A DNA stretch of 64,000 bases, taken from an uncultured Leptospirales bacterium (lineage in GTDB: Bacteria > Spirochaetota > UBA4802 > UBA5550). Under the pieces are notes generated by a model. It was given only the letters and a program-made list of their open reading frames with translations, was not told where the DNA came from and made no database searches. The DNA lies in NCBI GenBank assembly GCA_964645775.1, contig CAZYBU010000004.1, positions 17,805 to 81,804 on the forward strand. Reading direction: 5' to 3'. Shown here in pieces: positions 2,265 to 52,977 of this stretch (positions within the stretch are counted from its first letter, which is position 1; each line of letters begins with the position of its first letter). A program made the position numbers and the translations under genes.

Positions 2265-3295
2265 TACCGCACTTTTCTCGGTTCAGAAACCTTCAGATCA
2301 TCCTTTCTAATATTTTTCTCCCCGGTATACCAGTCCATCATGAGTTCCGTCGGATATTCCGGTCGATTCCCCTTTATAAGATCTTCTTCCATGGACTCCC
2401 ACGTTGCAAGGGTCAGATCAACGCATTTTTGAATCAGATTATCCACGGTCTCGTATCTGAGGCCGCCATTTCCGGAGGGATTTTTCCATCCTTCCCCATG
2501 ATGATTCAGTATATCTGAATTAATTCTCCGGGGGTCAGGATAAATAACGAACATTTCCAATCCGGTCTTCTGTTCCATAAAAAGGAGGAGTTTTCGTCCC
2601 CGATCACCCTTTACCCTTTTGAGAGACTGGATAAACACTTTTGCTCTCCCCGCAATTGCGAGAGGATCTGGGAACAATGACCACCTGCGGGACCTCTCTA
2701 CCCAGCGATGAATTGTTGAATCGGGAAAGGCATTTAACAGTCCCTCTTCGATGGTAAACGATACGGCAGGATGCATTTCCTGGATAGCCCTGCGGGGCTC
2801 ACAGAGGCTTTTCATCCCTTCCGGTGAACTGTACGCCAGGTAATTGTCGATCGTGTACATCATCAACAGGTTCTTCCTTCGTACGGAAGAAATGACCTTG
2901 CCTTTCCCCTGAAAAGGAATCCCGGACCAGTAATAGATAAAAGGGTGGAAGATGATATCCACTATTCCGTGACAAAGTAGACCGTAGAGATAGGCCCGGC
3001 TGTTCGCGGACCAGTTGTCCATTAAGTCGTTATTATTTCCAAGAAAATCAAGGACAGGTTCTAAGAATCTCTCCGCCGCAACCCCGTGAAGGTCCCGTTC
3101 AACTTTCTTTAAAATACCTGCCGGGGTATGATGAAACACATCCGGGCCCAGAGCCCCCACCATGCAGGAGCGCATCCTATCTTCCTCGGAAAAGAGAGAT
3201 TCCAGCGAACGAAGAAACAGGTTCTTCTGCCGGGTCCTCTTCAGAGTATCGATAATTCTTTCAATAATACAGGTATGAGTAATGGGTCCGGGCAT
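2255..3295 (-). CDS. Zinc-dependent phospholipase C family protein
   Basis: N-terminal MPGPITH, GALGPDVF and GLLCHGIVDIIFHPFIY motifs typical of Zn_dep_PLC-like proteins. Confidence 0.75.
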   Translation of the reverse strand: MPGPITHTCIIERIIDTLKRTRQKNLFLRSLESLFSEEDRMRSCMVGALGPDVFHHTPAGILKKVERDLHGVAAERFLEPVLDFLGNNNDLMDNWSANSRAYLYGLLCHGIVDIIFHPFIYYWSGIPFQGKGKVISSVRRKNLLMMYTIDNYLAYSSPEGMKSLCEPRRAIQEMHPAVSFTIEEGLLNAFPDSTIHRWVERSRRWSLFPDPLAIAGRAKVFIQSLKRVKGDRGRKLLLFMEQKTGLEMFVIYPDPRRINSDILNHHGEGWKNPSGNGGLRYETVDNLIQKCVDLTLATWESMEEDLIKGNRPEYPTELMMDWYTGEKNIRKDDLKVSEPRKVRYYF

Positions 3296-3380
3296 GATAT
3301 TTACCAGTCAACATGACAGCCATGATCGATTCTTAATCATCTGTCCAGCATTTATTATGACAAGGTGATCGCATTTGAAA

Positions 3381-3409
3381 TTGACGAAAAAATCCCCGGT
3401 TTTTATACT
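3381..3409 (+). promoter_or_regulatory. Sigma70-type promoter of the B12-sensor operon
   Basis: TTGACG (3381-3386), 17 bp, TATACT (3404-3409). AAGGAA RBS precedes ATG 3440. Confidence 0.7.
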
Positions 3410-3439
3410 TATAGCAAAATATACAAGGAAACGCATTTC

Positions 3440-4483
3440 ATGTCAGCATATATTCATGCGGCGACAGAGCTTCAAAAACAAGAACAGGACATCCTTTACG
3501 ATATCATATCTTCTTTCCAGGAAAAAGGCTTTTCTTTCAATATAACGAACGATAAGCTGATAGAATACATCCAGTACGATCTCGCATCTCTCCGTGAGGC
3601 TCTCCGGCGCCAGGATATCTCCTATTATAGCAGACAGCTTGGCTGGCTCTGGAGTATGCTTACCCGGCATGGTGTACCTGAATTCGCCATAAAAATGCGT
3701 TACGATCAAATGCAGAAAACCATATCAGGGCACTGTACACCGAATTCTTCCCGGTTAATCAGTGATTTTATTAACAATGCCCTCTACTCTGTAAAAGAAG
3801 AGGATTCAGAGCTCTCCCATATTTTACCGGACAATCCCCTGGCTAATGAAGCAGGGGAATACATGAACAAGCTGTTGAATTCAGATAAGGGTGGAGCCAT
3901 GGAGCTTATCTATTCCCTGGTAGAAAAGGGAGAACCGGTGAAATCAATATACATGGATATTTTCCAGCCGGTTCAGCTCGATATCGGTCGCCTCTGGCAG
4001 AATGATGAGATTTCCGTGGCCCAGGAACACTACTCAACGGCTTTGACCCAGCAATTGATGTCCATTCTCTTCCCCCATCTCTATACGGAAGAGAAAACCG
4101 GTAAAAAGATGGTAGCTACATGCCTCACCGGTGAACTCCATGAACTGGGACTTCGCATGGTTACGGACTTTTTCGAATCCGAGGGATGGGAGGCATTCTA
4201 CCTGGGAGCGAACATGCCCTATCCCGGAATCATTCAGACCATTAACCGCCACAGGGTCAATCTTCTTGCCCTGTCAGCCTCCATGCCGATTCAGGTTGAT
4301 CGAATAATCCAGTTCATAAGCAACGTCCGGGAACAGAGTGATCACTGGATATGCATCCTGGTGGGGGGATATCTTTTTAACCGTGATCCTGATTTATGGA
4401 AACGTGCAGGGGCGGATGGTTTTGCCCAAAACGCGTCCGAAGCCGTAACCCTGGCCACTGAGCTCTGCGATTCAATGTCATGA
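3440..4483 (+). CDS. Cobalamin-binding sensor protein: N-terminal globin-like helical domain plus CarH-type B12-binding domains
   Basis: W-x9-EH motif (WQNDEISVAQEH), ExHxxG (ELHELG), LGANMP, LSASM, LVGG. Start moved to ATG 3440 from promoter and RBS position. Confidence 0.88.
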   Translation: MSAYIHAATELQKQEQDILYDIISSFQEKGFSFNITNDKLIEYIQYDLASLREALRRQDISYYSRQLGWLWSMLTRHGVPEFAIKMRYDQMQKTISGHCTPNSSRLISDFINNALYSVKEEDSELSHILPDNPLANEAGEYMNKLLNSDKGGAMELIYSLVEKGEPVKSIYMDIFQPVQLDIGRLWQNDEISVAQEHYSTALTQQLMSILFPHLYTEEKTGKKMVATCLTGELHELGLRMVTDFFESEGWEAFYLGANMPYPGIIQTINRHRVNLLALSASMPIQVDRIIQFISNVREQSDHWICILVGGYLFNRDPDLWKRAGADGFAQNASEAVTLATELCDSMS

Positions 4484-5556
4484 ATATCATCGCCATCTGC
4501 AACCAAGAAAACCGTGTCCTTGAAATAATTGAGGATGAGACTGAAAGCATCAAACCCGGAATGATCATCCCCCTTGAAGAGGGGTTACCCCGGATTCAAT
4601 TGAATGACCAGGTATATTATGGCCGTCTTATCATTCTCGCGGGAGAGGATCGTATCCTCCTGGCTCCAGGAGGCAATCACTCTCTCGAAGAGGCTCTTAT
4701 CTCCATTACAAACCACTATCGTTTCCGCGTAACCGACATACAGCGAACCGTTGAAATGGAACACGCGGAACAAAAGAGTAAGGATGATGAGACCTATAAC
4801 AGGCTAACCGAGCTTAACAATGAACTCATAACAACCAGACGGGAACTCTCCCGCAAGAACATGAATCTCGACAGAATAAACCATGAACTGAACGAGGTTA
4901 ACCGGGAACTTGAATCTTTCAGCTATTCCGTATCACACGACCTGAGAGCTCCCCTGAGAGTCATCACAGGATACATACATCACCTTATGAATCCCGGGGA
5001 AAAAACATGCGAAGAGGAACGTTATTCCATCCTGAAAAGGATACATGCAAACGCAAAGCATATGCAGGAGATGATCAACGCTCTTCTCGATATATCAAGA
5101 CAGACCCGTAAGGAAATTGAACGGTCCCCTGTTGACATCTCATCTATTGCAGAATCAATCATCCATGACCTGAAGAAATATGAACCGGATCGAAGAGTCC
5201 AGACTGAGATTGAACCTGGAATAATTGTGAACGCTGATCATGACCTTACCCGTATCGTTCTGGTAAACCTCATCGGCAACGCCTGGAAGTACAGCGCAAA
5301 AAAAGAAATTGCAATTATTCGGCTTTACCTGGACTCTAATGGTCGTATCTGCCTGGAAGATAATGGTGCCGGTTTTTCAGAATCAATGAAAGAAGAACTG
5401 TTTACCGTTTTCCAGAGGGCCCATGACGAAAAAGAATTCTCCGGGCTGGGTGTGGGCCTTGCCACCGTAAAGCGTATCATACACAGACACAGGGGCAGTA
5501 TTGAAGCCCGGGGAGTACCGGGTGAGGGCGCGACATTCTGTTTTACTCTGGAGTGA
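4480..5556 (+). CDS. Cytoplasmic sensor histidine kinase
   Basis: H-box SYSVSHDLRAPLR, N-box NLIGNAWKYS, G1 EDNGAGF, G2 GLGVGLA. Coiled coil YNRLTELNNEL. ATGA overlap with the upstream gene. Confidence 0.93.
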   Translation: MNIIAICNQENRVLEIIEDETESIKPGMIIPLEEGLPRIQLNDQVYYGRLIILAGEDRILLAPGGNHSLEEALISITNHYRFRVTDIQRTVEMEHAEQKSKDDETYNRLTELNNELITTRRELSRKNMNLDRINHELNEVNRELESFSYSVSHDLRAPLRVITGYIHHLMNPGEKTCEEERYSILKRIHANAKHMQEMINALLDISRQTRKEIERSPVDISSIAESIIHDLKKYEPDRRVQTEIEPGIIVNADHDLTRIVLVNLIGNAWKYSAKKEIAIIRLYLDSNGRICLEDNGAGFSESMKEELFTVFQRAHDEKEFSGLGVGLATVKRIIHRHRGSIEARGVPGEGATFCFTLE

Positions 5557-6407
5557 CCATGCAATCTGTTTTTCCACCAAAAATCATGATCGTTGACGAT
5601 AATGAGGATGAGCTCTTTCTCATACAGAATCACCTGAAAAAACTAGATGCGGAAATCATCCCCATCCTTGAATCTGAGAAAGCCCTGGAACACGTTACAG
5701 ATGACAACCTTGCCCTTGTCATTCTCGATGTCGATATGCCCGGCATGGATGGATACTCCCTTGCGGAAGAGATCCGGAGTCGTCCTTCCTCCCGCTACGT
5801 CCCGATCATATTCTACACCGGAGCCTTTCGGAACGAAAGTCACTATTTCAAAGGATATGAGCATGGCGCTATTGATTATATTCTGAAAGACAGCAACCCG
5901 TCAATCCTGGTGGAAAAGGTAAAGATAATCCTTGAACTCTTTCTCTCCCGCAGGGAAATCCGTGACTCCGAGGTGCGATACCTGATTTTCAGGGAGGTTA
6001 ACCGTCTTGAAAATCATCAGACCAACCGGCAAAATCTTTACCATGATGACCAGGATTCCCTTAAAAAACAGCAACCGGAAACCTATGATGACCTCAAACA
6101 GAGGTATTTCGAACTTATGTATTCCATGGCCACCAAACAGAAAGGACGTGTCGATTCCACAATACCCCAGCGTCTGAACGAGATAACGACTACTCTTTCA
6201 AACCTTGACGGTCGAGGCTCTGATGCTATCTCTTTGCATCTTGATGCCATCAAGATGACCCTCTCAGACGTGAAACCGGAACTCAAGTCGAGTCTCCATG
6301 AAGCTGGCAGGATCATACTCCTGGGAATTATGGACCATCTCATTACCTTTTATAGAAGCCGGTATCTTATGAAAAGAGACCTCCCTTCTGGAGGCGCAGG
6401 CCGATGA
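5553..6407 (+). CDS. Response regulator: intact receiver plus helical C-terminal domain (KaiA-C/RsbU-N-like)
   Basis: VDDNE, LDVDMP, FYTG and YILK receiver residues. C-terminal LHLDAIK...GRIILLGIMDHLITFYR. Confidence 0.88.
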   Translation: MTMQSVFPPKIMIVDDNEDELFLIQNHLKKLDAEIIPILESEKALEHVTDDNLALVILDVDMPGMDGYSLAEEIRSRPSSRYVPIIFYTGAFRNESHYFKGYEHGAIDYILKDSNPSILVEKVKIILELFLSRREIRDSEVRYLIFREVNRLENHQTNRQNLYHDDQDSLKKQQPETYDDLKQRYFELMYSMATKQKGRVDSTIPQRLNEITTTLSNLDGRGSDAISLHLDAIKMTLSDVKPELKSSLHEAGRIILLGIMDHLITFYRSRYLMKRDLPSGGAGR

Positions 6408-8170
6408 AAAATTCGATCTTATTCCTTTTAATCATTATCGGTACCATCTCGGCTTCTGGTTCTGAATTCCCCAGCAGCGTATCATCCGTTCACCTCTATC
6501 AAGACCAGGCTCTCGTAACACGCCAGGCCCGCATTACTCTGAAAAAGGGCATAAATACCGTTACCCTTACCGGTCTTCCCCGTGGGATGAATGACATCTC
6601 TGTACGTGCCGGATTACCAGAATATTTTAATGGGACACTTCTCTCAGTTGAAGTGGAGAAAAACCCTCTTCTCACAGAAAGGAGAAAGGAGATTATCAGT
6701 ATCGAGGAGAAACTGGAAACCCTTCGTAACCGGGACAGAGAACTGATGGACAAACTAAAAATAATTGACCGGCAGGAACAGTTCCTGGATTCTCTTTCGG
6801 AATTTCATGCGAAGAAATCGGGAGATGATATCATAAAGGGTCAGGTATCCACTGGGGCCTGGGAAAAGGCCCTGAATTACACAGCCAGGAAATCGGCCTC
6901 CCTGAAGACCTCTAAACGATCTGTTATCAAGAAACGTGAAAAACTCGGAGAAGAGATACAGAAACATGAATTTCGTCTTCGACAGCTGACAGGGGAGCCT
7001 TATTTCCGGTATTATAACTCCATTAACCAGGACAGGAAGAAGAAGAGCAGCCAGTACGCTCTCCAGGAATATTCCGCCTCCGTTGATGCCTATCGTGAAA
7101 AACAGAATTTCCTGTATAATCCTGTTGGAAAGGTTGATTACGAAAAACGGATCATTCTCCGCATACACAGTCGCAGTGATCAGGCAATCTCCCTGAATGT
7201 GGAATACCTGATCCAGGGTACCAGCTGGGATATGACCTATACTCTCCGGGCAGATCACGCAGGACGAAAGGTGGAGCTTTCCGTAAATGGTGAGATATTC
7301 CAGAAGACAGGGGAAAACTGGAACAACATCCGAATCTCCCTCTCTACTGGTACTCCATCCTACACACTGAACCCCCCGTCTCTTCCTCCCTGGTACGTAA
7401 CTGTACGGGAGAATATTAGCCACATGAAAAAGAGTGGCTACCCACAAAAAATGGAACAACGAATGGATGACGTTTCACAGCAGGAATTAAAAAAAGAGAG
7501 AAGCCCTGCATTCTCCCGTCACGGGTCCAGGGTGGAAATCTCCTTCCCCCATCCCATAACGGTTATCTCTTCCAAAAGAAAGCAGAAAAAGAAGATCCAG
7601 AGCTATACCCTTTCCGGAACTGATATTGAAAAGTTCTATTACGAGGCCCTGGCGGGAGTGTCGGAGTCCTCCTATCTGACAGTCCAATTAAAGAATGGAA
7701 CTGACCTTCCATGGCTGCAGGGTAAAGCACAGGTCTTTCTCTCAGGAGAGTACACCGGAAGCCTGACTATCCCCTTCACGCCTCAGGGACAGAAACAGAC
7801 TCTCGTTCTGAGCAGTGAACCCTCACTTTCTGTGACCAAGACACTGATTAAGCGGTTCGAGGATTCTCCCGGTCTCTTTGACAAGAAAAAGCGGATATCA
7901 TACAGTTTTCTCCTGGAAGTGAAAAACGGACTCGACCATACGGCTCCTATTGAACTGAAGGACAGGTTTCCCGTATCCAGAAATGAGAAGATTGAGATAG
8001 AAGTTATCGATCTGTCCGAACCATTCGCAAAAGGGGAAACGGACTCAGCTGACTACCACTCCGGGATGCGTCTCTGGAGGTTCAATCTGGCAGCAGGTGC
8101 GACCCGAAAAATCACTTACAGAGTTACCATAACCTTCCCCAAAGATATAAACATTGAGGGACTGAGATGA
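6404..8170 (+). CDS. DUF4140/DUF4139 (MuiA-like) exported protein
   Basis: Signal peptide, VHLYQDQALVTR, long coiled coil, QKTGENWNNIRISLST, DRFPVS motifs. Confidence 0.85.
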   Translation: MKNSILFLLIIIGTISASGSEFPSSVSSVHLYQDQALVTRQARITLKKGINTVTLTGLPRGMNDISVRAGLPEYFNGTLLSVEVEKNPLLTERRKEIISIEEKLETLRNRDRELMDKLKIIDRQEQFLDSLSEFHAKKSGDDIIKGQVSTGAWEKALNYTARKSASLKTSKRSVIKKREKLGEEIQKHEFRLRQLTGEPYFRYYNSINQDRKKKSSQYALQEYSASVDAYREKQNFLYNPVGKVDYEKRIILRIHSRSDQAISLNVEYLIQGTSWDMTYTLRADHAGRKVELSVNGEIFQKTGENWNNIRISLSTGTPSYTLNPPSLPPWYVTVRENISHMKKSGYPQKMEQRMDDVSQQELKKERSPAFSRHGSRVEISFPHPITVISSKRKQKKKIQSYTLSGTDIEKFYYEALAGVSESSYLTVQLKNGTDLPWLQGKAQVFLSGEYTGSLTIPFTPQGQKQTLVLSSEPSLSVTKTLIKRFEDSPGLFDKKKRISYSFLLEVKNGLDHTAPIELKDRFPVSRNEKIEIEVIDLSEPFAKGETDSADYHSGMRLWRFNLAAGATRKITYRVTITFPKDINIEGLR

Positions 8171-9930
8171 GCGTACGCATTATTCCCAGAAGAACCAAGA
8201 TCGTCTGTACCCTGGGACCGGCCACGGACGACGAGAATCTCCTCAGGGAGCTGATCCTCGCGGGGATGGACGTGGCCCGACTGAATTTTTCCCATGGAAC
8301 CCACGATGAGCACCGGCAGCGCATTCAGACCCTCATGAAACTGAGAGAAGTACTGCGTCTTCCCGTGGCCATTCTCCTGGATACAAAAGGTCCGGAAGTG
8401 AGGATAGGGACATTCAGTGACGGGAAAACTATTCTGAAAACCGGTTCGACCTTCGTTCTTACAACAGATGAAATTGAGGGTGACGACACCCGGGTTTCCA
8501 TTACCTATCCCGATCTTCCTGAAGAGGTGGGCAGAGGAAACCGTATCCTTCTGGATGATGGTCTGATCGAGCTCTCTGTTATCTCCACCACAGCAAAGGA
8601 GATCGAATGCGAGGTCATTAACGGAGGGTCCTTGAGTAACCGCAAGGGAGTGAACATACCGGGGGTTTCCCTTAAGCTTCCCTTTATCAGCGAAAAGGAC
8701 AGAGAAGACATCGAATTCGGGATCCGGGAAGGGTTCGATTTTATAGCCGCGTCCTTTACTCGAAATGCCGGAGATATCCGGGACCTGAGAAGACTCCTGG
8801 ATTCCCTGGACGGCGGACATATGAAAATCATCTCAAAAATAGAAAACCATGAAGGATACAGCAACATTGAAGAGATCATACGGGTATCTGACGGAATCAT
8901 GGTCGCCCGAGGTGATATGGGAGTTGAAATTCCGTTCGAAGAGTTACCCGCCATTCAGAAGAACATCATCCAGAGATGTTACAGTGCGGGTAAACCGGTT
9001 ATAACGGCAACCCAGATGCTCGATTCCATGATACGTAATCCCAGACCCACACGAGCAGAACTTACAGACGTAGCCAACGCTGTCTACGATGGTACAAGTG
9101 CCCTCATGCTCTCAGGAGAAACATCAATCGGCAAGTACCCTGTTGAGTCCGTCCAAACCATGAACAAGATAGCCATGAAGACCGAGGGCAGCATCGATTA
9201 TATTCACCGTTTTAACAGCACCCATAACCAGGTCCCCAAAAATGTCACGGCCGCCATCGGCCACGCCACCTGTTCAACAGCCCACACACTGGGGGCCTCT
9301 GCCATCATTACGGTGACTAAGTCAGGCTATACGGGAAGAATTATATCCCGCTTTCGGCCCGCCGTTCCCATTATTGCCACAACCATAACAAAACGAGTAT
9401 ATCGCCAGCTGGCCCTGAACTGGGGCGTCCATCCCATTATGTCAATGGAGAAAGGTACAACGGACGAAGTCTTTGACCAGGCTATAGAGCGTTCCATGGA
9501 AACCGGAATTATCACAAATGGTGACCTTGTGGTTCTCACGGGCGGGATACCGGTAGGTATCAGCGGAACAACCAATACCATAAAGGTTCATATCGTGGGA
9601 GACGTAATCGCCCGGGGAGAGGGCATCAATAATTTCAGAGCCACAGGGAATCTCTGCGTTGTGAATAACAGCTACGACCACCTGGAAACCTTCAATGTTG
9701 GAGATGTTCTGGTAATATCGAATTCAACGGATGACATTCTTCCCATGATAAAGAACGCGGCCGCCCTGGTAACCGAAGAGGAATCGAACGATTCAAGAGC
9801 CGCCATCGTTGGAAAGGCTCTGGAGATACCTGTCATTACCGGAGTAAGCGGAGCCACGGGTATTCTAAAAAGCGGATCTCTTGTTACAGTTGATGCCGGT
9901 AAAGGATACATTTATAGCGGCATCCATTAA
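8167..9930 (+). CDS. pyk: Pyruvate kinase with C-terminal PEP-utiliser (swivel) domain
   Basis: RRTKIVCTLGPA, RLNFSHG, DTKGPE, MVARGDMGVE, TATQMLDSM, MLSGET. 587-aa long form. Confidence 0.97.
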   Translation: MSVRIIPRRTKIVCTLGPATDDENLLRELILAGMDVARLNFSHGTHDEHRQRIQTLMKLREVLRLPVAILLDTKGPEVRIGTFSDGKTILKTGSTFVLTTDEIEGDDTRVSITYPDLPEEVGRGNRILLDDGLIELSVISTTAKEIECEVINGGSLSNRKGVNIPGVSLKLPFISEKDREDIEFGIREGFDFIAASFTRNAGDIRDLRRLLDSLDGGHMKIISKIENHEGYSNIEEIIRVSDGIMVARGDMGVEIPFEELPAIQKNIIQRCYSAGKPVITATQMLDSMIRNPRPTRAELTDVANAVYDGTSALMLSGETSIGKYPVESVQTMNKIAMKTEGSIDYIHRFNSTHNQVPKNVTAAIGHATCSTAHTLGASAIITVTKSGYTGRIISRFRPAVPIIATTITKRVYRQLALNWGVHPIMSMEKGTTDEVFDQAIERSMETGIITNGDLVVLTGGIPVGISGTTNTIKVHIVGDVIARGEGINNFRATGNLCVVNNSYDHLETFNVGDVLVISNSTDDILPMIKNAAALVTEEESNDSRAAIVGKALEIPVITGVSGATGILKSGSLVTVDAGKGYIYSGIH

Positions 9931-10514
9931 GAGGAGAGTCTCTTAAGGGCCTCCTTTATAAGCTTCTCCAGGGAAATGCTCTTCATCTCATTAAGTATCC
10001 CATTTACGGTCTGCCTGGCCCCGGACTCGTCGAAACCGAGGGATACCAGGGCTTCAACCGCTTCAAGCATATCCCTTTCTTCTCCGGACCTTTCTTCGGC
10101 TTCAAAGCCTTCCAGTTTGCCTGATTTTCTTTTCAATTCAAAGATAAGTTTTTCCGCCTTGCTTTTACCAATACCGGGCACCTTTATAAGCCTGGAAATG
10201 TCATCATTCCGAACAGCATGAATCAGATCATTCGTTGAGAGACCTGAAAGGATAGAGAGAGCCATGGAGGGGCCGATGCCGCTGACTCGAAGAAGAAGAG
10301 AAAAAAGGTCCCTGTCCTGAGAATTCGTGAATCCAAAGAGACGAAACTGGTCTTCTCTGACGTAGGTATAAATGTTGAGAACCGCTTCCTTTCCCGCTTC
10401 GATCTGATTAAAAACCGTTAAAGGGATCTCAACCAGGTATCCTACCCCCGAGACATCAAGGATTACCTCTGTCGGCTTACAGGAGACTGCGATACCTTGA
10501 AGACGGGCAATCAT
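9927..10514 (-). CDS. ruvA: Holliday junction branch migration protein RuvA
   Basis: MIARLQG, GVGYLV, YVREDQFRLFGF, VSGIGP and VPGIGK HhH motifs, EALVSLGF. Confidence 0.95.
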   Translation of the reverse strand: MIARLQGIAVSCKPTEVILDVSGVGYLVEIPLTVFNQIEAGKEAVLNIYTYVREDQFRLFGFTNSQDRDLFSLLLRVSGIGPSMALSILSGLSTNDLIHAVRNDDISRLIKVPGIGKSKAEKLIFELKRKSGKLEGFEAEERSGEERDMLEAVEALVSLGFDESGARQTVNGILNEMKSISLEKLIKEALKRLSS

Positions 10515-10518
10515 GGTA

Positions 10519-10953
10519 TTATGAAACACTTATCAGTCTTCTGAGGAAAGCCTGGACCTTCTCTAATATTCCCGATTTTTCGATGAACTGGGCCTTCTGC
10601 AGAGCGAGGAAACCGTCTGAAATCCCAAAATCCCGGATAGCTCTGGTCAGAAAATGTATCCTATCGTCCCGGGAGCCGAGCCAGCTTGTCAACTGGTTGG
10701 CATAGATATCCGGTTCGATAAAGATATCCTTCTCCCGGCCGCCACTTTCCGCTATGGCAGAAAGGGAATCGTGGATGAACTGCATCGTCCAGTTATCGTT
10801 CATCCTGTGTTCGTTCATCTCCTGGATCATCTTCCTGAACTCATCGGATGCGCTGTCAGAAACGGCCCAGTATCTTTCATATTCATTTTCCCTGAGTTCA
10901 AGGTACTCAAGAAACTCCATACATTTCTCCTGCAATGACTGCTCAAGTTGCAT
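10519..10953 (-). CDS. Hypothetical alpha-helical protein, possibly phage-type/Ocr-like
   Basis: Intact 144-aa ORF tightly packed between the TPR gene and ruvA; motif EPDIY..QLTSWLGS. Confidence 0.65.
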   Translation of the reverse strand: MQLEQSLQEKCMEFLEYLELRENEYERYWAVSDSASDEFRKMIQEMNEHRMNDNWTMQFIHDSLSAIAESGGREKDIFIEPDIYANQLTSWLGSRDDRIHFLTRAIRDFGISDGFLALQKAQFIEKSGILEKVQAFLRRLISVS

Positions 10954-22283: not shown

Positions 22284-22679
22284 ATGCAGACCCTAACAGT
22301 GCAATCAAGATCAAAAGATGAACTCATAGATATTACTTCCCGTGTCCAGGACGCTGTCAGGGAAGAAGGCATCGATACAGGCATATGTCTTGTCTACACT
22401 CCCCATACCACGGCGGGAATAACCGTTAATGAAAACGCAGATCCGGATGTCAAAGACGACATCATTCTCGGACTCAGCCATCTTGATCTTGAAAAGGTCC
22501 CCTTCCGTCATGCTGAGGGAAACTCACCGGCGCACTGCAAATCATCCCTGGTCGGATGCTCCGAAACCTTTATAGTCGAAGGAGGAAGTCTGATGCTGGG
22601 AACCTGGCAGGGGATCTACTTCTGCGAGTTTGATGGTCCCAGACGCAGAAAGGTTCATGTGAGAACCCTTCAGGCCTGA
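22284..22679 (+). CDS. yjbQ: YjbQ/UPF0047 family protein
   Basis: HTTAGITVNENADPDV, HAEGNSPAH, LGTWQGIYFCEFDGPR. Confidence 0.93.
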   Translation: MQTLTVQSRSKDELIDITSRVQDAVREEGIDTGICLVYTPHTTAGITVNENADPDVKDDIILGLSHLDLEKVPFRHAEGNSPAHCKSSLVGCSETFIVEGGSLMLGTWQGIYFCEFDGPRRRKVHVRTLQA

Positions 22680-25567
22680 TCATTATCTCGTAAACTGAAG
22701 ACTGCTCCTTCGACGTTACCTTCTTCATCGAAGATCGGATTTCCCTGAATAATCAGGTTCACTACGGTTCCATCAGGCCGTTTGACCGCGTGAACAAAAT
22801 TATCAACAGCTTTTCTGGTATCTGCAATCTGCCTGAAGGGAAGCTTATTGTCATCCAGGGGCTGGCCATCGGTGTCCATAATCTGAAACCGGCTCGAATT
22901 GTAATCCAGTGTAATCAGTTCTTTTTCTGACATTCCCAGAATCTTTTCAGCCTCATGGTTTACCATTACGATTTTACCTTCATTGTCCACCATGGTTATG
23001 GCAATGGGAGCAGATTTCAATACCCTCATGAGAAGGTCCTGTTCCCTTTTCAGGGCACTCTCCATTTTTTTACGTCCTGTTATATCCACAAAGGAGAGCA
23101 CAATACCGGAGATCTGGTCCCCTGCTGCTCGATATGGCTGAATTTTCATCAGGAGCCACTGATCATTTACAGTCTGGACTTCGGTCTCCCTGGGATTAAG
23201 AGTTCGTATCACCTCGTTGATGTCATCAATAAAGGTGTCATATTTCAGGTTATGGGAAAAATTACTGATAGATCTACCAATATCTGATTTAATTATGTTT
23301 ATCTGGTTTGTTGACTGAGGGGTAAACTTCCTTATTGTCAGGTCCTTATCCAGGAAGATGGTACCGATATCCGTGCTGTTCAACAGGTTGTTCATATCAT
23401 CGTTCAATTCAGTCAGTTCTTCAATTTTCTTCTGGTACTCTGAATTGACGGTGATGAGCTCCTCATTTACAGACTGTAGTTCCTCGTTTGTACTCTGGAG
23501 CTCTTCGTTAGATGATATGAGCTCTTCATTCGTGGCCTGAAGTTCCTCGTTTGATGTCTCAAGCTCTTCAATTGTTGAGCGAAGGTTATCTCTGGTGTAC
23601 TGTAGTTCCCTTTCCAATTCATCGATATGGTCCTTTACGCTTTCATCCATATTGAAAGATTGAGCTGCAACTTCATCTGTAATATTATCTTCAACGGTCT
23701 GGAAAGTTATGACAAAATACCGGGTACCCTTAAGACCCTGGAAAACCCGGATACTCATATTTATCATCCGGTTTCCTTTGCTCCCCTGGAAAATGATGTC
23801 CCTGTAATGGACGTCCCGGTTTTCCTCCTGGACGGTTTTCAGTCCCTGGCTCATGGGTACCGTAAGATTAGAATTCGCCATCTTAAGTATATCCAGGTTC
23901 ATCTTCCCGAAAGGAAGCTGCAGGTATTCATTCACGTCACCGAAGATGTGAATCACCTGTCTCTCCTCGTTTACCAGTACGGAAGGAGGGATAAACTGTT
24001 CCAGAAGCCGTTCATAGAGACTTAGGTCACGTTTACCCATCTGACTCTGTTCAATATACTGTCCTTTCTGAACATTTCTTCCCACGATTGGAGCGGTATT
24101 CCTGGATGCGGGTATCTCCTGGTAATCGAGGTTGATATCCTTTGGCTTGACGCTACCAATATATGAATAGATTTTCCATTTGGAATCGTAGATGGAAAAA
24201 TAATTACTGAACTCGCCCACGGTTTCGCTACTGCCGAGAAACAGGAAAGCGACAGGATTGAGAGAAAATTGAAAATTAGTAAGGACCTTCTTCTGGAGAA
24301 CATTTTGAAAATAGATCAGCATGTTCCGGCAGCTGATCAAATCTATCTTGCCGAAGGGAGGGTCCTTGAAAACATTATGGTAGGCGAAGATGACCTTCTC
24401 CCTTATCTTTGGGATAATCTGATAGCTGTCACCCTTCTTGTAAAAGAATTTGTTCAGCCTTTCAATATTCGCGTCAGCGGCAATACTCTCCGGATAGATC
24501 CCGTAAGAAGCGATCTCCAGAGCGTCCCTGTCAATGTCCGTGGCAAAAACCTTAACGTCGTTATTCAGTTCATTCTCTTCCAGAAACTCAAGAATCATGA
24601 TTGCCAGACTGTAGGCCTCCTCTCCGGTTGAACACCCCGCGACCCACACCCGTATCTGATCAAAGGGACTCTTGCTGTTTGCAATCTCCGGAAGCACCTT
24701 TTCCTTGATTATCTCGTAGGCTTCCGGGTCGCGGAAGAAACTGGTCACGCCGATCAAAATTTCCTTGTACAGGATCTGGATCTCATTAGGCGATTCTTCC
24801 AGGTAACGGACATAATCGGAAAGCTTTTCAAACTGGTTGATTCCCATTCGTCGTTCAATTCGTCGGATGACAGTGTTTTCCTTGTAGAAGGAGAGATCAA
24901 TACCTGTCTTTTTCTTAATGAGAGCCAGAGTCTTGGAAAGGCTGTTTCTCTCCGCAGAAATCGCGTGCTGCTGTGTCGTTGAAATAGAAAGCTTCCCTGT
25001 TGTGTAATTCTCCAGCTCCCCTGACATCTGATCGGGAGACAGAATATAATCGACAATTCCGGTCAGGATGGCGCTTCTGGGCATACCATCGAATTTAGCC
25101 GTCTCTTCGTCCTGGACCATTACCATTCCGCCGGCTTCCTTTATCGCGCGTACACCCCGGGTACCATCACTTCCGGTCCCTGAAAGTATGATCCCGATGG
25201 CATGCTCCCCCTGCTCCTCGGCCAGGGAACGAAAGAAAATATCTATGGGCAGGTTGAGTCCATGTTCCCGTTCATGAAGGAAGAGCTTTCCATGAAACAG
25301 GGTCATGTTCTTTTTCCTGGGGATCAGATAAATACTCCCCGCTTCCACCTCCATCCCGTCCTCTGCGCCGAAAATTTTCATTTCCGTATGCCTGTTCAGG
25401 AGTTCACCCATAAGACTTTTATAATCAGGAGAGAGATGCTGAACCACTACAAAAGCCATGTTACGGCTCTGTTTCATGTTATCAAAGAAGTCCTCAAGAG
25501 CCTCAAGTCCACCGGCTGAGGCGCCTACTCCGACTATATAAAAAGGATATGTATGTTCGTCGCTCAT
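22670..25567 (-). CDS. CheB-CheR fusion with coiled coil and PAS domains
   Basis: GASAGG, VQHL, GTGSDG (CheB); VTSFFRD, WVAGCSTGEEAYS, ISCRN (CheR); NEELQ heptads; C-terminal PAS domains. Confidence 0.94.
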   Translation of the reverse strand: MSDEHTYPFYIVGVGASAGGLEALEDFFDNMKQSRNMAFVVVQHLSPDYKSLMGELLNRHTEMKIFGAEDGMEVEAGSIYLIPRKKNMTLFHGKLFLHEREHGLNLPIDIFFRSLAEEQGEHAIGIILSGTGSDGTRGVRAIKEAGGMVMVQDEETAKFDGMPRSAILTGIVDYILSPDQMSGELENYTTGKLSISTTQQHAISAERNSLSKTLALIKKKTGIDLSFYKENTVIRRIERRMGINQFEKLSDYVRYLEESPNEIQILYKEILIGVTSFFRDPEAYEIIKEKVLPEIANSKSPFDQIRVWVAGCSTGEEAYSLAIMILEFLEENELNNDVKVFATDIDRDALEIASYGIYPESIAADANIERLNKFFYKKGDSYQIIPKIREKVIFAYHNVFKDPPFGKIDLISCRNMLIYFQNVLQKKVLTNFQFSLNPVAFLFLGSSETVGEFSNYFSIYDSKWKIYSYIGSVKPKDINLDYQEIPASRNTAPIVGRNVQKGQYIEQSQMGKRDLSLYERLLEQFIPPSVLVNEERQVIHIFGDVNEYLQLPFGKMNLDILKMANSNLTVPMSQGLKTVQEENRDVHYRDIIFQGSKGNRMINMSIRVFQGLKGTRYFVITFQTVEDNITDEVAAQSFNMDESVKDHIDELERELQYTRDNLRSTIEELETSNEELQATNEELISSNEELQSTNEELQSVNEELITVNSEYQKKIEELTELNDDMNNLLNSTDIGTIFLDKDLTIRKFTPQSTNQINIIKSDIGRSISNFSHNLKYDTFIDDINEVIRTLNPRETEVQTVNDQWLLMKIQPYRAAGDQISGIVLSFVDITGRKKMESALKREQDLLMRVLKSAPIAITMVDNEGKIVMVNHEAEKILGMSEKELITLDYNSSRFQIMDTDGQPLDDNKLPFRQIADTRKAVDNFVHAVKRPDGTVVNLIIQGNPIFDEEGNVEGAVFSLRDNDQA

Positions 25568-32581: not shown

Positions 32582-34723
32582 CTACTTAATTTTCATAGCC
32601 AACAGAGTAATATCATCATGTGGTTCCGTGCCTTTCATAAACCGTTTTACATCCTTTTCTACAGTTTCCACAAATGCATCCGGCTCAAGCTTCTCCAATC
32701 CCCTTATCAGATCAATGAACCGTTCTTCTCCATACTCATTACCCTCTTTGCTCATGGCTTCGACAACACCATCCGTATAAAGAACAAGCATACTGCCTGA
32801 TGGGAACGTTTTTCTATGAGACGAAACCAGACGAGTGAAGGTTTCCCGTCCAGCAGCTCCCAGGGCGATTCCGCCTCCCTTAAGTTCCTTAACATCTCCA
32901 GACTCAAGGAGATAAGCGGGATTATGTCCCGATGACACGTATTCCAGAGAACCCTGCTTCGGATCGAATATACCGTACCAGATAGTGACAAAAAAGTTAC
33001 TTTCAGTATGAAGATAGAGATAATCGTTGATCTCTTCCATAAGATACTTGATGGAATCACCTCTCCGGGTATGGGAATAGACCAGTGTGCGAGTCATGGC
33101 CATGACAAGCCCCGATCCCACACCATGTCCTGAAACGTCCGCTATAACAAGTGCCAGTTTTCCGTCTTCCAGAGAAATAACATCATAGTAATCCCCTCCC
33201 GCCTCGGTCTGGGCCTGGTAAAGGGCTCCGAAATAGACATTCTCTATCTCAGGAAAGATATCTGGCAGAAGAGTCTTCTGAATGGCCTCGGCGGTTTTCA
33301 GCTCATTTTCCATCCGCTCCTTGATGATCATCTCTTTTTGTGCCTTCTCCAGATTCCCGGCCATGTTGTTCATGGAGTCCGCCAGCTGTCCCAGTTCATC
33401 GCTACCACCCATGTCAATCCGGGTATCCAGTTTACCCTGACCAATGGAACGGGCCGCCTCATTTACCCTTGTAATGGATCGAACAAGAAATGTGGGAAAA
33501 AATATAGCCAGGATCGCCACACGAATACCAATACTCAGTATGAGGTTGATCAGTTCCTTCCGGTTTTCCATCAAGCGGGCATGAAAGGATTTCCGCAGAA
33601 TATACAGCCCGGCAATTCCCGCAAGATCGCTCCTGAAGGCAAGCAGGTTAAGTTCATGGACGTTCTTATCAGAATCGATTCGGATGCCTCCCTGTTTTTC
33701 CAGATAGTAATAGAAGTTTTTCCAGATATCCTCATCATTCTTTTTTATCCGGGGAGTAATTCTAAACTTGTCCATGGTACGATCGGAGATCTCTTTTACG
33801 TCTGAAAGAAAAAGGCCCTGTTCATTTATCTTTCCATTGAGGCTGGCAAGGTAGAAGTCACGTATATCCCTGTACTGTTCGTTACCGATTCTTCGGGGGC
33901 GATAATGAAACCAGAAGAAACTGAAGATTTTCCCGGTAAGTTCCGGTTTATCTAAAACAATACGGTAGGTAAACTCTACCTGATTGTTAACCAGCTTCCG
34001 GATACTGATTTTTCGCAGTTTTTGTCGTTCCTTCTCCAGGGTTTCTGTATCCCCGCTAATGGATCTGGATTGATTTTTATACACAAGATATCTGTTGTAA
34101 TAAGCCCTGTCTCCCTTTCTCTCAAATAGAGGGTATCCTACGATGACAAATTCATCTTCAGACTCTTCTCTTCCCCTGGAGAAGACCAGATGAGTATCAA
34201 CATTGACGTTATTCATAAAATAATTCAGGATAGTCGGCTTTAGAAAAGGATCCACTGGATAGGTATCCAGGATACCTTCGGTAGTTCGGTTAAAGTATAT
34301 GAAATTAGACTGGTGTTTGCCTTCCCATCCGAGATTTATATCACGGATGTTCAGATCAATAAGAAAGGCGATATCATAGTTCTTTTCCGAACCGATGATA
34401 CGCGCGAGGTATTCCGTGGCCTCTTTCAGATGACGGGCCTTTGCCCTGTAAAGATATCGCCTTCTGGCCTGGGAGAGCTTCCCGGCATCCTTCTCCTTCA
34501 GTTCTTTATCTATGGCCAGATAGGATACAAGGTTTTCATCACATCCCTTGATGACAGGACCGGCCATCCTGTGCATGGTCTCTCGCATTTTCGATTCATG
34601 CTGATTAAAAACCGCAAGGGCAATGACAGCTGCCACAACGGATGTTGCCCCGATCATTACCAGTGCTATTTTAAACCGGATACTAAACCTGATGGGGCGG
34701 GTTTTTCCGCTCTTAAGTTTCAT
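32582..34723 (-). CDS. Membrane HAMP-SpoIIE (PP2C) serine phosphatase
   Basis: Two TM segments flanking a large extracytoplasmic domain; DELGQLA HAMP; GGDYYD, ADVSGHG, YTDGV, DDITL. Confidence 0.93.
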   Translation of the reverse strand: MKLKSGKTRPIRFSIRFKIALVMIGATSVVAAVIALAVFNQHESKMRETMHRMAGPVIKGCDENLVSYLAIDKELKEKDAGKLSQARRRYLYRAKARHLKEATEYLARIIGSEKNYDIAFLIDLNIRDINLGWEGKHQSNFIYFNRTTEGILDTYPVDPFLKPTILNYFMNNVNVDTHLVFSRGREESEDEFVIVGYPLFERKGDRAYYNRYLVYKNQSRSISGDTETLEKERQKLRKISIRKLVNNQVEFTYRIVLDKPELTGKIFSFFWFHYRPRRIGNEQYRDIRDFYLASLNGKINEQGLFLSDVKEISDRTMDKFRITPRIKKNDEDIWKNFYYYLEKQGGIRIDSDKNVHELNLLAFRSDLAGIAGLYILRKSFHARLMENRKELINLILSIGIRVAILAIFFPTFLVRSITRVNEAARSIGQGKLDTRIDMGGSDELGQLADSMNNMAGNLEKAQKEMIIKERMENELKTAEAIQKTLLPDIFPEIENVYFGALYQAQTEAGGDYYDVISLEDGKLALVIADVSGHGVGSGLVMAMTRTLVYSHTRRGDSIKYLMEEINDYLYLHTESNFFVTIWYGIFDPKQGSLEYVSSGHNPAYLLESGDVKELKGGGIALGAAGRETFTRLVSSHRKTFPSGSMLVLYTDGVVEAMSKEGNEYGEERFIDLIRGLEKLEPDAFVETVEKDVKRFMKGTEPHDDITLLAMKIK

Positions 34724-40299: not shown

Positions 40300-41994
40300 A
40301 TGTCTGAAAGACCTGTAATTATCCAGAGCGACAACACCCTTCTTGTTGAAGTTAACAATCCGGATTTCGAAAATGCGAGAGATGCCATATCTCCATTCGC
40401 AGAACTTGAGAAGAGCCCGGAGCATATCCACACTTACCGCATTACCCCTCTCTCCCTCTGGAACGCGGCCGCCTCCGGCATGACCTATAACACGATTCTG
40501 GAACGCCTGAACCAGTATTCCAGGTACGACATCCCGGATATTGTCATTACGACCATACAGGAACAGATGCAGAGGTACGGTCTGATCAAACTGTTTCGTA
40601 AGGGAGAAAACCTGATCCTGGAATGTAATGACCCAATCCTGCTTCGTGAGATTCTTAATGACCGTAAAGTCAGTCAATTTATCGATGATCAGATCGACAA
40701 AACATCCGCGCGGGTATTACCCAATTACAGGGGGCATATCAAACAGGCCCTGATTAAGATAGGGTTTCCCGTGGAAGATCTCGCCGGTTACGAAAAGGGA
40801 GATCCTTTCCCCCTGGAGCTTTCCGAAACTACATCTCAGGGGCACTCTTTCCATATACGCGATTATCAGCAAAGCGCAATCAGGGCTTTCTACAGGGGTG
40901 GTGGTCCGGAAGGAGGCAGCGGAGTCATCGTTCTACCCTGCGGCGCCGGAAAAACCATCGTGGCCATAGGAATCATGGAGTTCATGCAATCGGAGACACT
41001 GATACTGGTGACCAACACTGTTGCCCTCCGTCAGTGGAAGCAGGAACTTTTGGATAAAACCGACATCAACGAAGAACAAATAGGCGAATTTTCCGGTGAC
41101 CGTAAGGAGATCCGGTCCATTACCATAGCGACCTATAACATTCTTACGTATCGCAAGAATAAAAAAGAAGATTTCACTCACTTTGACATATTCCAGAAGA
41201 AGAACTGGGGACTCATCATATACGACGAGGTTCATCTGCTTCCTGCGCCTGTTTTCAGGATGACATCAGAGATCCAGTCTAAACGAAGACTCGGTCTTAC
41301 GGCGACTCTTATCCGTGAAGATGGCCTGGAAACCGATGTTTTCAGTCTCATAGGTCCGAAGAAGTTCGACATGCCCTGGAAGGCCCTGGAGAAATCACAG
41401 TGGATCGCGGAAGCCATCTGCACGGAGGTACGGGTGGCACTTCCGGATGACCTCAGGTATCAGTATTCCGTTGCCCGGGACAGGGACAAATTCAGGATCG
41501 CTTCAGAAAACCGCCGTAAGATGGATTTTGTCCGAAAAATCATCAAACGTCACTCCAGCGGGAACATACTGATCATAGGACAATATATCTCCCAGCTGGA
41601 GGAATTTCAGCGGGAATTTTCCTTTCCCATGATAACGGGAAGCACACCTGTTAATGAACGGGAAGAACTTTACAACAGGTTCCGTAACGGGGAGATTACC
41701 TCACTAATTGTTTCAAAAGTTGCAAATTTTTCCATTGACCTCCCGGACGCCAATGTAGCTATCCAGATTTCCGGAACCTTCGGTTCCCGCCAGGAAGAAG
41801 CCCAGCGTCTTGGACGGATTCTGCGACCGAAGGAAGACGACAACTCTGCCCGCTTTTATACCATCGTAACAGCCAATACCGTGGAAGAGAAGTTCTCCCA
41901 TAACCGGCAACTTTTCCTTACAGAACAGGGGTACACCTACATTATTCTGAATGAAGATATGTTCGAGGACGCCTGCCAGGGAGGAAACCTCTAA
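40300..41994 (+). CDS. DNA repair helicase XPB
   Basis: IIQSDNTLLVE, ELEKSPEHIHTYRIT, LPCGAGKT, YDEVH, GLTAT, QEEAQRLGRILR. Confidence 0.95.
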   Translation: MSERPVIIQSDNTLLVEVNNPDFENARDAISPFAELEKSPEHIHTYRITPLSLWNAAASGMTYNTILERLNQYSRYDIPDIVITTIQEQMQRYGLIKLFRKGENLILECNDPILLREILNDRKVSQFIDDQIDKTSARVLPNYRGHIKQALIKIGFPVEDLAGYEKGDPFPLELSETTSQGHSFHIRDYQQSAIRAFYRGGGPEGGSGVIVLPCGAGKTIVAIGIMEFMQSETLILVTNTVALRQWKQELLDKTDINEEQIGEFSGDRKEIRSITIATYNILTYRKNKKEDFTHFDIFQKKNWGLIIYDEVHLLPAPVFRMTSEIQSKRRLGLTATLIREDGLETDVFSLIGPKKFDMPWKALEKSQWIAEAICTEVRVALPDDLRYQYSVARDRDKFRIASENRRKMDFVRKIIKRHSSGNILIIGQYISQLEEFQREFSFPMITGSTPVNEREELYNRFRNGEITSLIVSKVANFSIDLPDANVAIQISGTFGSRQEEAQRLGRILRPKEDDNSARFYTIVTANTVEEKFSHNRQLFLTEQGYTYIILNEDMFEDACQGGNL

Positions 41995-46413: not shown

Positions 46414-48544
<2,131 letters not shown>

Positions 48545-48545
<1 letters not shown>

Positions 48546-48877
48546 TACTTTTTTCTTTTACCTTTTATATTAACCCGGATTCCTTTTATACTTTTTCCGG
48601 GAAATTGCTTTTTTATTACATCAATAATACTGTCTTTCATAAGCATTATCTCATTAGAATAAACCTGGTGATCAGTTATTACATGAAGATAACCATGAGA
48701 CACTTTTTCAGGCTTACTATGCGTTGATATTATGTCGCCTGTGATGGTTCGCCATCTTCCCTTCAATGATTCAATGAAAAGGGAATCATCAAGCTCAAGA
48801 TCCCTTGTCACTTCCGGAAGAATCTGAGAAAAGGACCGCAATGATCCCTTTCTAGTACGACCTAACCTGAATTTCAT
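48545..48877 (-). CDS. DUF721/DciA family helicase-loading protein
   Basis: W..ITGDIISTHSKPEKV..GYLHVIT; located downstream of recF. Confidence 0.82.
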
Positions 48878-49983: not shown

Positions 49984-49993
49984 TAGGAACTTA

Positions 49994-51112: not shown

Positions 51113-51125
51113 TTCCCCTTACTCC

Positions 51126-51191
51126 TATTATTATATTAATAAATATATATTTATAAAGTAGTAGTTGTAGAAAGCATGGATAAGTGGATAA
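51126..51191 (-). other. oriC unwinding region: DnaA-box pair, DnaA-trios, AT-rich tract
   Basis: Minus strand TTATCCACTTATCCATG CTTT CTACAACTACTACT TTATAAATATATATTTATTAATATAATAAT, between dnaA and dnaN. Confidence 0.85.
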
Positions 51192-51366
51192 AAAGGATAC
51201 TACCTGAAAATATCAATGGTTATTCCTTTATTTCATTGTTAACAATAGTATCGTAATTTGTTTATGAAATGGATTTTTCCAACGGTTTTTGTTATTTTCC
51301 CTGTATCTCTCAAATTATAAACATTTCTTCATGCAGGATAAACAGTCAATACACAGTCAGTAAACA

Positions 51367-52689: not shown

Positions 52690-52703
52690 GGGATTCACCT
52701 CAT

Positions 52704-52977
52704 TTGTCCACAATTGTTGATAACTATGTGTATAAATACATTAATGTTCAGTACAATGCTGACAGTTTTAATAGAAATTGATGAAAAGGATTCTTGCCTA
52801 AAAATTCAGGAGAACCGATAACGTACCTAATGGACGCCATTAATTGCGGTTTTTATCAAGAAATTAATTCCCTAGCCAACGCTTAAAAAAAAAAAAATGA
52901 AAATGTGAGGATAATGTATGGAAAACCTGTGGATAACCGTACATTCTTGTGGATAAGGATGTCTTAATTGTGGGCAA
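52704..52977. other. Upstream oriC/dnaA regulatory DnaA-box cluster
   Basis: Consensus boxes TGTGTATAA (52727) and TGTGGATAA (52928, 52948); near matches TTGTCCACA (52704), TGTTGATAA (52715), TGAGGATAA (52906), TATGGAAAA (52917), TGTGGGCAA (52969). Confidence 0.85.

Follow-up and report, generated by a model that had tools for sequence, protein, structure and literature searches.

A photoglobin-B12 sensor gene next to a soluble histidine kinase and a response regulator in an uncultured Leptospirales bacterium, a candidate cobalamin-dependent two-component cassette

Light sensing through B12 has been established in transcription factors (CarH) and in a single diguanylate cyclase fusion (photocobilins), and in the literature searched, no report was found of a B12 photoreceptor tested for control of a histidine kinase (HK). 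Here, we describe a three-gene cassette encoding a sensor protein, an HK, and a response regulator (RR) at positions 3381 to 6407 of a 64,000-nucleotide (nt) stretch of DNA, hereafter the window, from an uncultured Leptospirales bacterium (GenBank assembly GCA_964645775.1, contig CAZYBU010000004.1, positions 17,805 to 81,804). An original prediction made from the sequence had read the sensor as a detached light or cobalamin receptor for the kinase, and this was followed up by family searches, structure modeling, and a survey of related loci.

RESULTS

Gene content of the cassette

The genes of the cassette and the main features of their products, lengths being given in amino acids (aa) and positions in window coordinates, are as follows.

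3440..4483, + strand, photoglobin-B12 sensor gene, 347 aa (open reading frame [ORF] 3365-4483, ATG at 3440)
3440-3796, + strand, photoglobin domain of the sensor, residues 1-119, six helices in the model
3557..3568, + strand, codons of Leu40-Ile41-Glu42-Tyr43 (LIEY), the site of the Cys/Ser/Thr-x-x-Asp bilin motif, both key residues replaced
Sensor residues 135-213, + strand, B12-binding_2 four-helix cap carrying W186-x9-E196-H197
Sensor residues 223-344, + strand, B12-binding Rossmann domain with His234 as lower ligand
4480..5556, + strand, soluble HK gene, 358 aa, HisKA and HATPase_c
5559..6407, + strand, RR gene, about 280 aa, alternative starts GTG 5553 and ATG 5586
About 6075-6377, + strand, C-terminal four-helix domain X of the RR, possibly KaiA-C/RsbU-N-like

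ATG 3440 was taken as the start of the sensor gene because the family alignment begins at that methionine and AAGGA lies upstream. The sensor and HK genes overlap in an ATGA at 4480-4483, and a GTGA at 5553-5556 opens the RR ORF at GTG 5553. The original prediction of three genes joined by ATGA/GTGA overlaps thus stands in that both overlaps are present, but the RR may start later and the chain of overlaps runs on past 6407. ATG 5559, with GGAG 6 nt upstream, and ATG 5586, which gives the 273-aa form present in the protein collection, are equally possible as RR starts. On the Kyte-Doolittle scale, the most hydrophobic 19-residue stretch of the three proteins averages 1.25, and none of them has a transmembrane segment.

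Sensor protein with a globin and a CarH-type B12 module

The Pfam matches of the sensor were B12-binding_2 and B12-binding, with no DNA-binding domain found by Pfam. The sensor carries the motifs W186-x9-E196-H197 and E232-x-H234-x-x-G237, and when 201 family members (121 proteins and 80 loci, some possibly redundant) were aligned with MAFFT, W186, E196, H197, H234, and G237 were invariant in all 201, while position 232 was occupied by Glu in 167 and by Asp in 34. The nearest solved sequences were the photocobilins 8J2X, 8J2W, and 8J2Y (E 6e-23 to 1e-18), with CarH and corrinoid proteins behind them, and the best NCBIfam match was CarH.

The AlphaFold2 model of the sensor, built with 38 homologs (mean pLDDT 89.4, pTM 0.77), showed six helices (2-118), a linker, a four-helix bundle (135-213), and a Rossmann domain (223-344). 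A search of the model against 48,161 PDB representatives assigned the N-terminal domain to the globin fold with phycobiliproteins closest, and the B12 module was of the CarH/photocobilin type by sequence, NCBIfam, and fold search. The family profile matched the C-terminal globin of the photocobilin SasPcob (i-E 2.4e-4) and allophycocyanins (E 3e-5 and weaker). PF00502 was detected in 29 of the 38 aligned homologs and was not detected in the window sensor. The N-terminal part has the six-helix, phycobiliprotein-related fold of a photoglobin without the two N-terminal helices and is fused to the B12 module, which combines the CarH-type four-helix cap and W-x9-EH motif with a Rossmann domain holding the His ligand in E/D-x-H-x-x-G. 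By sequence and modeled fold, the sensor is assigned to the photoglobin-B12 family, as a domain-permuted relative of the photocobilins.

These results bear out most of what the original prediction had read from the letters, namely, the W-x9-EH and ExHxxG motifs, the N-terminal helical domain (about 118 aa, six helices in the model), and the lack of a DNA-binding domain, and the suggested globin and B12-photoreceptor identities held up in the model, the fold search, and the family comparisons. The analogy drawn with photocobilins applies to the globin, which is homologous to that of SasPcob, whereas its bilin part is doubtful in the window copy (Tyr43/Leu40).

Kinase pairing and a shared N-terminal domain of partner kinases

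The HK consists of a short degenerate N-terminal region (residues 1 to about 95), a coiled coil, HisKA (145-208, with H153), and HATPase_c (254-357), the last two being its only Pfam matches. H153, N263/N267, and D294/G296 fall in invariant columns, and the HisKA and ATPase motifs are complete. The HK boxes, the receiver pocket residues, and the adjacency of the genes are those of a two-component system as read from the sequence. A search of the ESM Atlas with the HK N-terminal region gave weak leads (unnamed clusters at 0.89, HNOBA at 0.86, and PAS at 0.75), and a PAS-like nature of this region is a guess. The complex prediction for the sensor and HK residues 1-140 scored 0.02 against a mark of 0.32 and counts neither for nor against binding.

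Of the candidates scored, 1145 proteins matched the sensor family at E <= 1e-3, and at least 583 loci were found in one-genome-per-species contigs. Gene neighborhoods were surveyed in the best 80 of these at least 583 loci, which come from many phyla, with the following outcome downstream of the sensor gene.

63/80 loci, HK directly downstream on the same strand, mostly about 400 aa, gaps mostly -8 to +25 nt
2/80 loci (L015 and L045), sensor fused to the kinase (Pfam)
2/80 loci, contig ends too soon
1/80 loci (L082), broken sensor gene
12/80 loci, no adjacent kinase by this criterion

Alignment of 27 partner kinases with the window HK revealed a common N-terminal region of about 110 aa, followed by an INNEQ-type helix and a coiled coil, for which no Pfam match was obtained in any of the aligned kinases. 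A profile of this partner N-domain, built from the 27 partner kinases with the window sequence excluded, matched 55 of 64 adjacent HK ORFs (28 of 37 among those outside the training set) vs 1 of 33 other HKs of the same loci, and in a profile search the domain was absent from both fused sensor-HK proteins. It was also found in the downstream ORF of 7 of the 12 loci scored as having no kinase.

L026, PAS-HisKA-HATPase (Pfam)
L028:2645-3397, HisKA_2 start (Pfam)
L092, HisKA start (Pfam)
L087, PAS only (Pfam)
L052, no Pfam match
L069:6930-8672 and L077:6939-8189, GGDEF diguanylate cyclases headed by the partner N-domain (Pfam)

Given this distribution, the N-domain is the leading candidate for the part that takes up the sensor signal. 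A role of the sensor as the detached input of its adjacent kinase, the core of the original prediction, is strongly supported by this comparative context, in which the kinase gene directly follows in most loci and fused sensor-HK proteins occur; the kinase itself was as predicted, with no transmembrane segment and no Pfam domain other than HisKA and HATPase_c. In the same family of organisms, locus L008 of the relative G011 carries a 405-aa B12 protein frame between two HK genes. This protein was rejected as an ortholog of the window sensor, its N-terminal part being unrelated to the window globin; the locus indicates that B12 sensor/kinase pairing recurs in the family with another N-terminal domain.

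Replacement of the bilin-site residues and supply of cofactors

The bilin-site motif Cys/Ser/Thr-x-x-Asp of photoglobins is described in section 3.2 of Schneider et al. 2022 (PMC8717448) and was called CXQD by Rockwell et al. 2023 (PMC10151467). The Asp column of the family alignment contained Asp in 184 of 201 members and Tyr in 5, among them the window sensor (Tyr43) and its 94% relative. Three residues upstream, Ser (72), Cys (63), or Thr (5) occurred in 140/201 members and Phe in 39, and the window has Leu40, so that both the helix-3 Asp and the distal Cys/Ser/Thr of photoglobins are missing from the window copy. The register is anchored by Y46, L48, L51, and the invariant Trp69, which aligns with the corrin-contacting Trp296 of SasPcob. 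In L091, from an uncultured Spirochaetales genome, the sensor is 35% identical, reads CFED at this site, and is PF00502-positive.

In the profile alignment, the conserved Asp of the family corresponds to the SasPcob Asp and to a His in AbPcob. Biochemistry is available for the permuted form only, the photocobilins, which bind adenosylcobalamin (AdoCbl) and biliverdin (BV) according to Zhang et al. 2024 (PMC10979010). In that paper, the change from Asp270 of SasPcob to His in AbPcob is accompanied by weak BV binding with about 20% BV occupancy.

The window genome (3.41 Mb, 96.8% complete) contains the adenosyltransferase CobA/BtuR and one further B12-domain match, in a 1232-aa frame. Heme oxygenase (PF01126), ferredoxin-dependent bilin reductase (PF05996), and a PduO-type transferase were not found in it. 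PF01126 was present in 6 of the 35 family-bearing genomes from the 80 loci, though most family members keep the Asp. In two Desulfobacterota-type loci (2/35), a heme oxygenase gene, preceded by a gene for a major facilitator superfamily transporter, divergently adjoins the sensor gene (L019:5087-5677 and L025:4982-5611, both - strand), which ties canonical members to bilin supply at the genetic level. Judged from its residues, the window globin has probably lost bilin binding, and sensing by AdoCbl only is favored by Tyr43 and Leu40 together with the missing heme oxygenase and the presence of the CobA adenosyltransferase.

Response regulator with a possibly KaiA-C/RsbU-N-like output domain

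The RR begins with a receiver domain (Response_reg, E 3e-20), in which the acidic pocket, the phospho-acceptor Asp, and the receiver Thr and Lys were read from the sequence. The region of about 160 aa after the receiver matched no Pfam family at E <= 0.1, in agreement with the predicted output without a recognizable DNA-binding domain. In the RR model, a long linker helix leads into four helices (164-264). A fold search run with the complete model returned receiver-domain matches only, which filled the match list. The last 110 or so residues, termed domain X, have relatives in 5 of the 80 related loci.

L071, REC-X directly after the kinase
L036 and L065, REC-PAS-X
L026, PAS x3-X
L082, fragment of X

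The domain X profile matched 1750 cluster representatives at E <= 1e-3 and 1429 at E <= 1e-10; among the 150 matches listed, it was always C-terminal, in proteins of 143-1002 aa. It was present in 3 of 301 genomes of the phylum of the window, the window genome included; the remaining two have it behind kinases of other types and lack a B12 sensor in its vicinity.

Domain X was compared with the KaiA C-terminal and RsbU N-terminal families (PF07688 and PF08673). A 5-sequence profile of domain X matched KaiA C-terminal structures of the PDB at E 0.016, Pfam KaiA matched the window domain at E 0.03, and of 48 REC-X and related proteins, 3 matched RsbU_N (best 2.7e-4) and 3 matched KaiA (best 1.4e-3). 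In the ESM Atlas, KaiA clusters came first (0.93, 0.93, and 0.91) and an RsbU_N cluster next (0.84). No RsbU N-domain structure was among the PDB matches of either this profile or a 21-sequence one. KaiB (PF07689) was not found in the window genome. The KaiC family PF06745 gave partial matches of <=46.3 bits per stretch, 67.5 bits summed over two stretches of a 449-aa frame; there is no clear KaiC by this search, which is unspecific, and the co-occurring KaiB and KaiC genes of a KaiA3-KaiB3-KaiC3 clock module were not found.

Elsewhere in the window, a 713-aa protein whose C-terminal half is a phosphatase of SpoIIE/PP2C type is encoded at 32582-34723 (- strand). Phosphatases of this type are components of partner-switching systems, in which RsbU-N-like domains function.

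Promoter candidate and downstream genes

The surroundings of the cassette contain the following features.

3381..3409, + strand, sigma-70-like promoter candidate TTGACG-17 nt-TATACT, 31 nt upstream of the sensor start
6404..8170, + strand, DUF4140/DUF4139 (MuiA-family) protein gene, N-terminal hydrophobic leader, start overlapping the RR stop
8167..9930, + strand, pyruvate kinase gene, last of the co-oriented chain, name read from the translation with no family search
9927-10529, convergent ruvA, name read from the translation with no family search

The promoter candidate matches the consensus in 10 of 12 positions and falls inside the longest sensor ORF (3365-4483). Sites of this quality occurred 14 times in 7.6 kb (3000-10600) vs 9.2 +/- 3.3 times in shuffled sequence, and since equally good matches are not rare in the region, the near-consensus promoter of the original prediction is confirmed as a match and is only plausible as a promoter. 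The overlap chain continues with ATGA at 6404-6407 into the DUF4140/DUF4139 gene and with ATGA at 8167-8170 into the pyruvate kinase gene. The DUF4140/DUF4139 gene is probably cotranscribed with the cassette, and the genes of this secreted-looking protein and of pyruvate kinase may both be cotranscribed with the sensory genes. A phmmer search of the 80 related loci (E <= 1e-4) matched neither protein, and the DUF4140/DUF4139 protein is not conserved with the system. No cobalamin riboswitch was found in the window, which had no Rfam match at all at the gathering thresholds.

Source organism, habitat, and a deletion variant

GyrA of the window was 73-76% identical to proteins of named source, 8 of the 10 being from Spirochaetota/Spirochaetes, 1 from Smithella, and 1 from a "bacterium." No full-length sensor ortholog was found in 40 relatives, 16 of which matched the B12 module only. 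Public sequencing runs with the window DNA or close relatives were labeled microbial mat or tidal flat (with the possible source run X1 excluded). A contig from the tidal-flat run X6 covers the whole cassette (3315-6411) with 278 differences (about 91% identity), and the cassette proteins are 92-94% identical to close homologs; as a rough inference, these two levels of identity suggest purifying selection. The X6 contig is unlike the window just outside 3315-6411, and the cassette was considered as a mobile unit for this reason; the idea was dropped, as a similar hydrophobic leader can still be read after 6411, and the X6 flanks have probably just diverged beyond the 88% threshold.

Contigs of the microbial-mat runs X2, X3, and X7, from two studies, carry a shortened version of the locus.

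3387..5133, deletion with 15 other letters in place

It extends over the -10 box, all of the sensor gene, and codons 1-218 of the HK gene. The contigs join 3386 to 5134, with 87 identical bases upstream and 1367 bases downstream that differ at 73 places.

Three further observations were made in the window outside the cassette. The cumulative GC skew has its minimum near 50-52 kb (region of about 48000-53000), and together with gyrA at 43923-46394, this suggests that the window may contain the replication origin. A 965-aa protein with CheB-like, CheR-like, and PAS regions, an unusual fusion, is encoded at 22670-25567 (- strand), and a bacterial XPB-type DNA repair helicase (NF045503, E 2.7e-260, above the cut-off) at 40300-41994 (+ strand).

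DISCUSSION

Proposed mechanism

Starting from the domain identities, the motifs, and the conserved pairing of sensor and kinase genes with its fusions, all of which were observed, we infer the cofactor, the light response, the sensor-kinase contact, the phosphotransfer, and the nature of the output. On balance, the sensor appears to be an AdoCbl-only light receptor that controls the neighboring kinase by contact and acts through a protein-binding output. It would bind AdoCbl in the base-off/His-on form through His234 under the CarH-type W-x9-EH cap, with the N-terminal globin packed on the B12 module and Trp69 as the counterpart of SasPcob Trp296. On exposure to near-UV to green light, the Co-C bond would break and, as in CarH and photocobilins, the four-helix cap would be altered or the oligomeric state would shift. 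The soluble kinase encoded next door would receive this change through contact between the two proteins. The kinase would then phosphorylate the adjacent receiver protein, whose KaiA-C/RsbU-N-like four-helix output would act on a partner protein and not on DNA.

Several points weigh against this reading. Only residues 2-22 of the window HK matched the partner N-domain profile (4.4 bits), and in the MAFFT alignment with the partner kinases its N-terminal region has a gap of about 36 residues, so that the usual docking module may be impaired. The lost Asp and Cys could mean a decaying globin and not a repurposed one, and the missing heme oxygenase is weak evidence for the loss of bilin binding. 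The mat contigs without the sensor and half of the kinase indicate that the module is dispensable in close relatives, and for many family members the record titles name anaerobic lineages that are unlikely to meet light. The promoter candidate fits the consensus no better than chance would give. The resemblance of domain X to KaiA-C/RsbU-N is a weak lead based on marginal scores from several methods, and the 21-sequence profile matched PDB KaiA at E 1.3, worse than the smaller profile.

Alternative explanations

If the globin bound BV or another bilin beside AdoCbl, the sensor would be a dual-chromophore photoreceptor of photocobilin type with a response extended to red light. The homology of the window globin to the BV-binding domain of SasPcob, the alignment of Trp69 with Trp296, and the heme oxygenase genes divergently placed beside the sensor genes in L019 and L025 speak for such a sensor, and the bilin could come from neighbors in the mat community. 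The key Asp is nevertheless replaced by Tyr43, at a position where His in AbPcob goes with about 20% BV occupancy (PMC10979010), the distal Cys/Ser/Thr by Leu40, the genome lacks PF01126 and PF05996 genes at 96.8% completeness, and the window copy escapes PF00502, which together make a second chromophore unlikely. We give about the same low weight to a sensor that works in the dark and reads cobalamin availability or redox state, in which the bound form (Ado-, hydroxo-, or cob(II)alamin) would set the kinase activity in the manner of AerR. The occurrence of the family in the anaerobic, nonphototrophic Methanotrichaceae, Syntrophaceae, Cloacimonadota, and Desulfomonilaceae (record titles) would fit such a role, but the Ado-capping W-x9-EH motif is invariant and marks light-responsive B12 domains (PMC11796333), and the runs with the window DNA or close relatives come from lit habitats.

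The cassette could also be a decaying or uncoupled remnant whose genes are neighbors by descent and in which sensor control of the kinase was lost in this lineage. The degenerate partner N-domain, the replaced bilin residues, the deletion variant of the mat populations with a 1-nt deletion at 5201 in the HK remnant of the X2 contig, and the lack of a full-length ortholog in all 40 relatives are in line with decay; with all three frames intact, catalytic motifs complete, and the cassette whole elsewhere at the identities given above, it is quite improbable. A corrinoid methyl carrier of a methyltransferase system was suggested by annotation, since one source names the 94%-identical sensor homolog and many family members "methanogenic corrinoid protein MtbC1," and the MtgC/MtbC NCBIfam matches are present yet weak (49 bits vs cut-offs of 215-370). 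The W-x9-EH cap, the fused globin, and CarH as the best NCBIfam match contradict this role, and the neighbors are a kinase and a receiver with no methyltransferase gene adjoining. The MtbC/MtmC/MtgC identity was rejected on the scores below the family cut-offs and the missing adjacent cognate methyltransferase, and a methyl carrier is extremely improbable.

Beyond the AdoCbl-only light sensor with kinase contact, a bolder proposal is put forward tentatively and is itself rather doubtful. The partner N-domain, which heads the kinase or diguanylate cyclase gene product next after the sensor in about 62 of the 80 loci and is missing exactly in the fusions, would be a dedicated docking and receiving module for photoglobin-B12 sensors and would define a two-protein photoreceptor input used across many phyla. 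In the window spirochaete, a bilin-less, AdoCbl-only version of this input would feed a true-receiver, KaiA-like regulator that switches a partner protein and not transcription.

Significance

The cassette is compact and fully soluble (347-aa sensor, 358-aa kinase, and regulator of about 280 aa) and could be reconstituted in vitro, and as a natural variant without the bilin ligands, the sensor can help to separate the roles of the two chromophores. The survey yielded two family-wide leads, the partner N-domain as a candidate interface and the recurrent KaiA-C/RsbU-N-like output. Modules of this kind also deserve attention as green-light parts for optogenetics.

Comparison with known systems

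The photoglobin-B12/two-component family, widespread and probably light-sensing, is known from computation, and the window cassette is a further member of it. Schneider et al. 2022 (PMC8717448) describe the photoglobin plus B12 architecture, in which the globin may follow or precede the B12 domains, report operons in which two-component genes are abundant, and include Candidatus Marispirochaeta associata in their alignment. The original prediction that such a system is not established in a spirochaete-like organism is therefore true for experiments, whereas the architecture and the two-component neighborhoods, a spirochaete included, are already in that paper. The window sensor shares with these proteins the domains (a globin without the two N-terminal helices, B12-binding_2, and B12-binding) and the HK/receiver operon association, and differs by the absence of the conserved Asp and the distal Cys/Ser/Thr. 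KaiA, RsbU, and a novel domain are not mentioned in the main text of PMC8717448. Relative to that text and to the other papers found, three features may be new: the window copy's loss of the bilin ligands, the N-domain conserved among partner kinases, and an output resembling KaiA-C/RsbU-N.

The photocobilins SasPcob and AbPcob (PMC10979010; 8J2W, 8J2X, and 8J2Y) have the closest solved B12 modules, and their globin, W-x9-EH cap, and corrin-contacting Trp are homologous to those of the window sensor. The domain order is reversed, however, with the globin C-terminal there and N-terminal here, and the equivalent of Asp270 is missing, being Tyr in the window. Photocobilins are fused to a diguanylate cyclase or stand alone, whereas the output in the window would run through a separate kinase. 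CarH/LitR (Thermus thermophilus, 5C8D and 3WHP) share the AdoCbl-type B12 domain, W-x9-EH, and the His-on ligand, but carry a MerR DNA-binding domain where the window sensor has a globin, and the signal here would go to the kinase.

AerR acts on a partner protein via cobalamin. AerR (7TE2) and the SCHIC domain of AppA are structural neighbors of the window sensor and B12-fold sensors without a DNA-binding domain, which indicate a possible mode of action and not the family; their partners are the repressors CrtJ or PpsR, they have no globin, and the sequence similarity to the window sensor is low (E 0.034).

For the output, the nearest counterpart is KaiA3, in which, according to Koebler et al. 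2024 (PMC11372060), a true receiver is joined to a KaiA-like domain, whose fold that paper gives as otherwise known only from KaiA and the RsbU N-domain. The window RR has the same order of a true receiver followed by a four-helix, possibly KaiA-like domain; it differs in standing in a genome without KaiB or a clear KaiC, and its domain X, which resembles KaiA by marginal scores, belongs to a much larger unannotated family.

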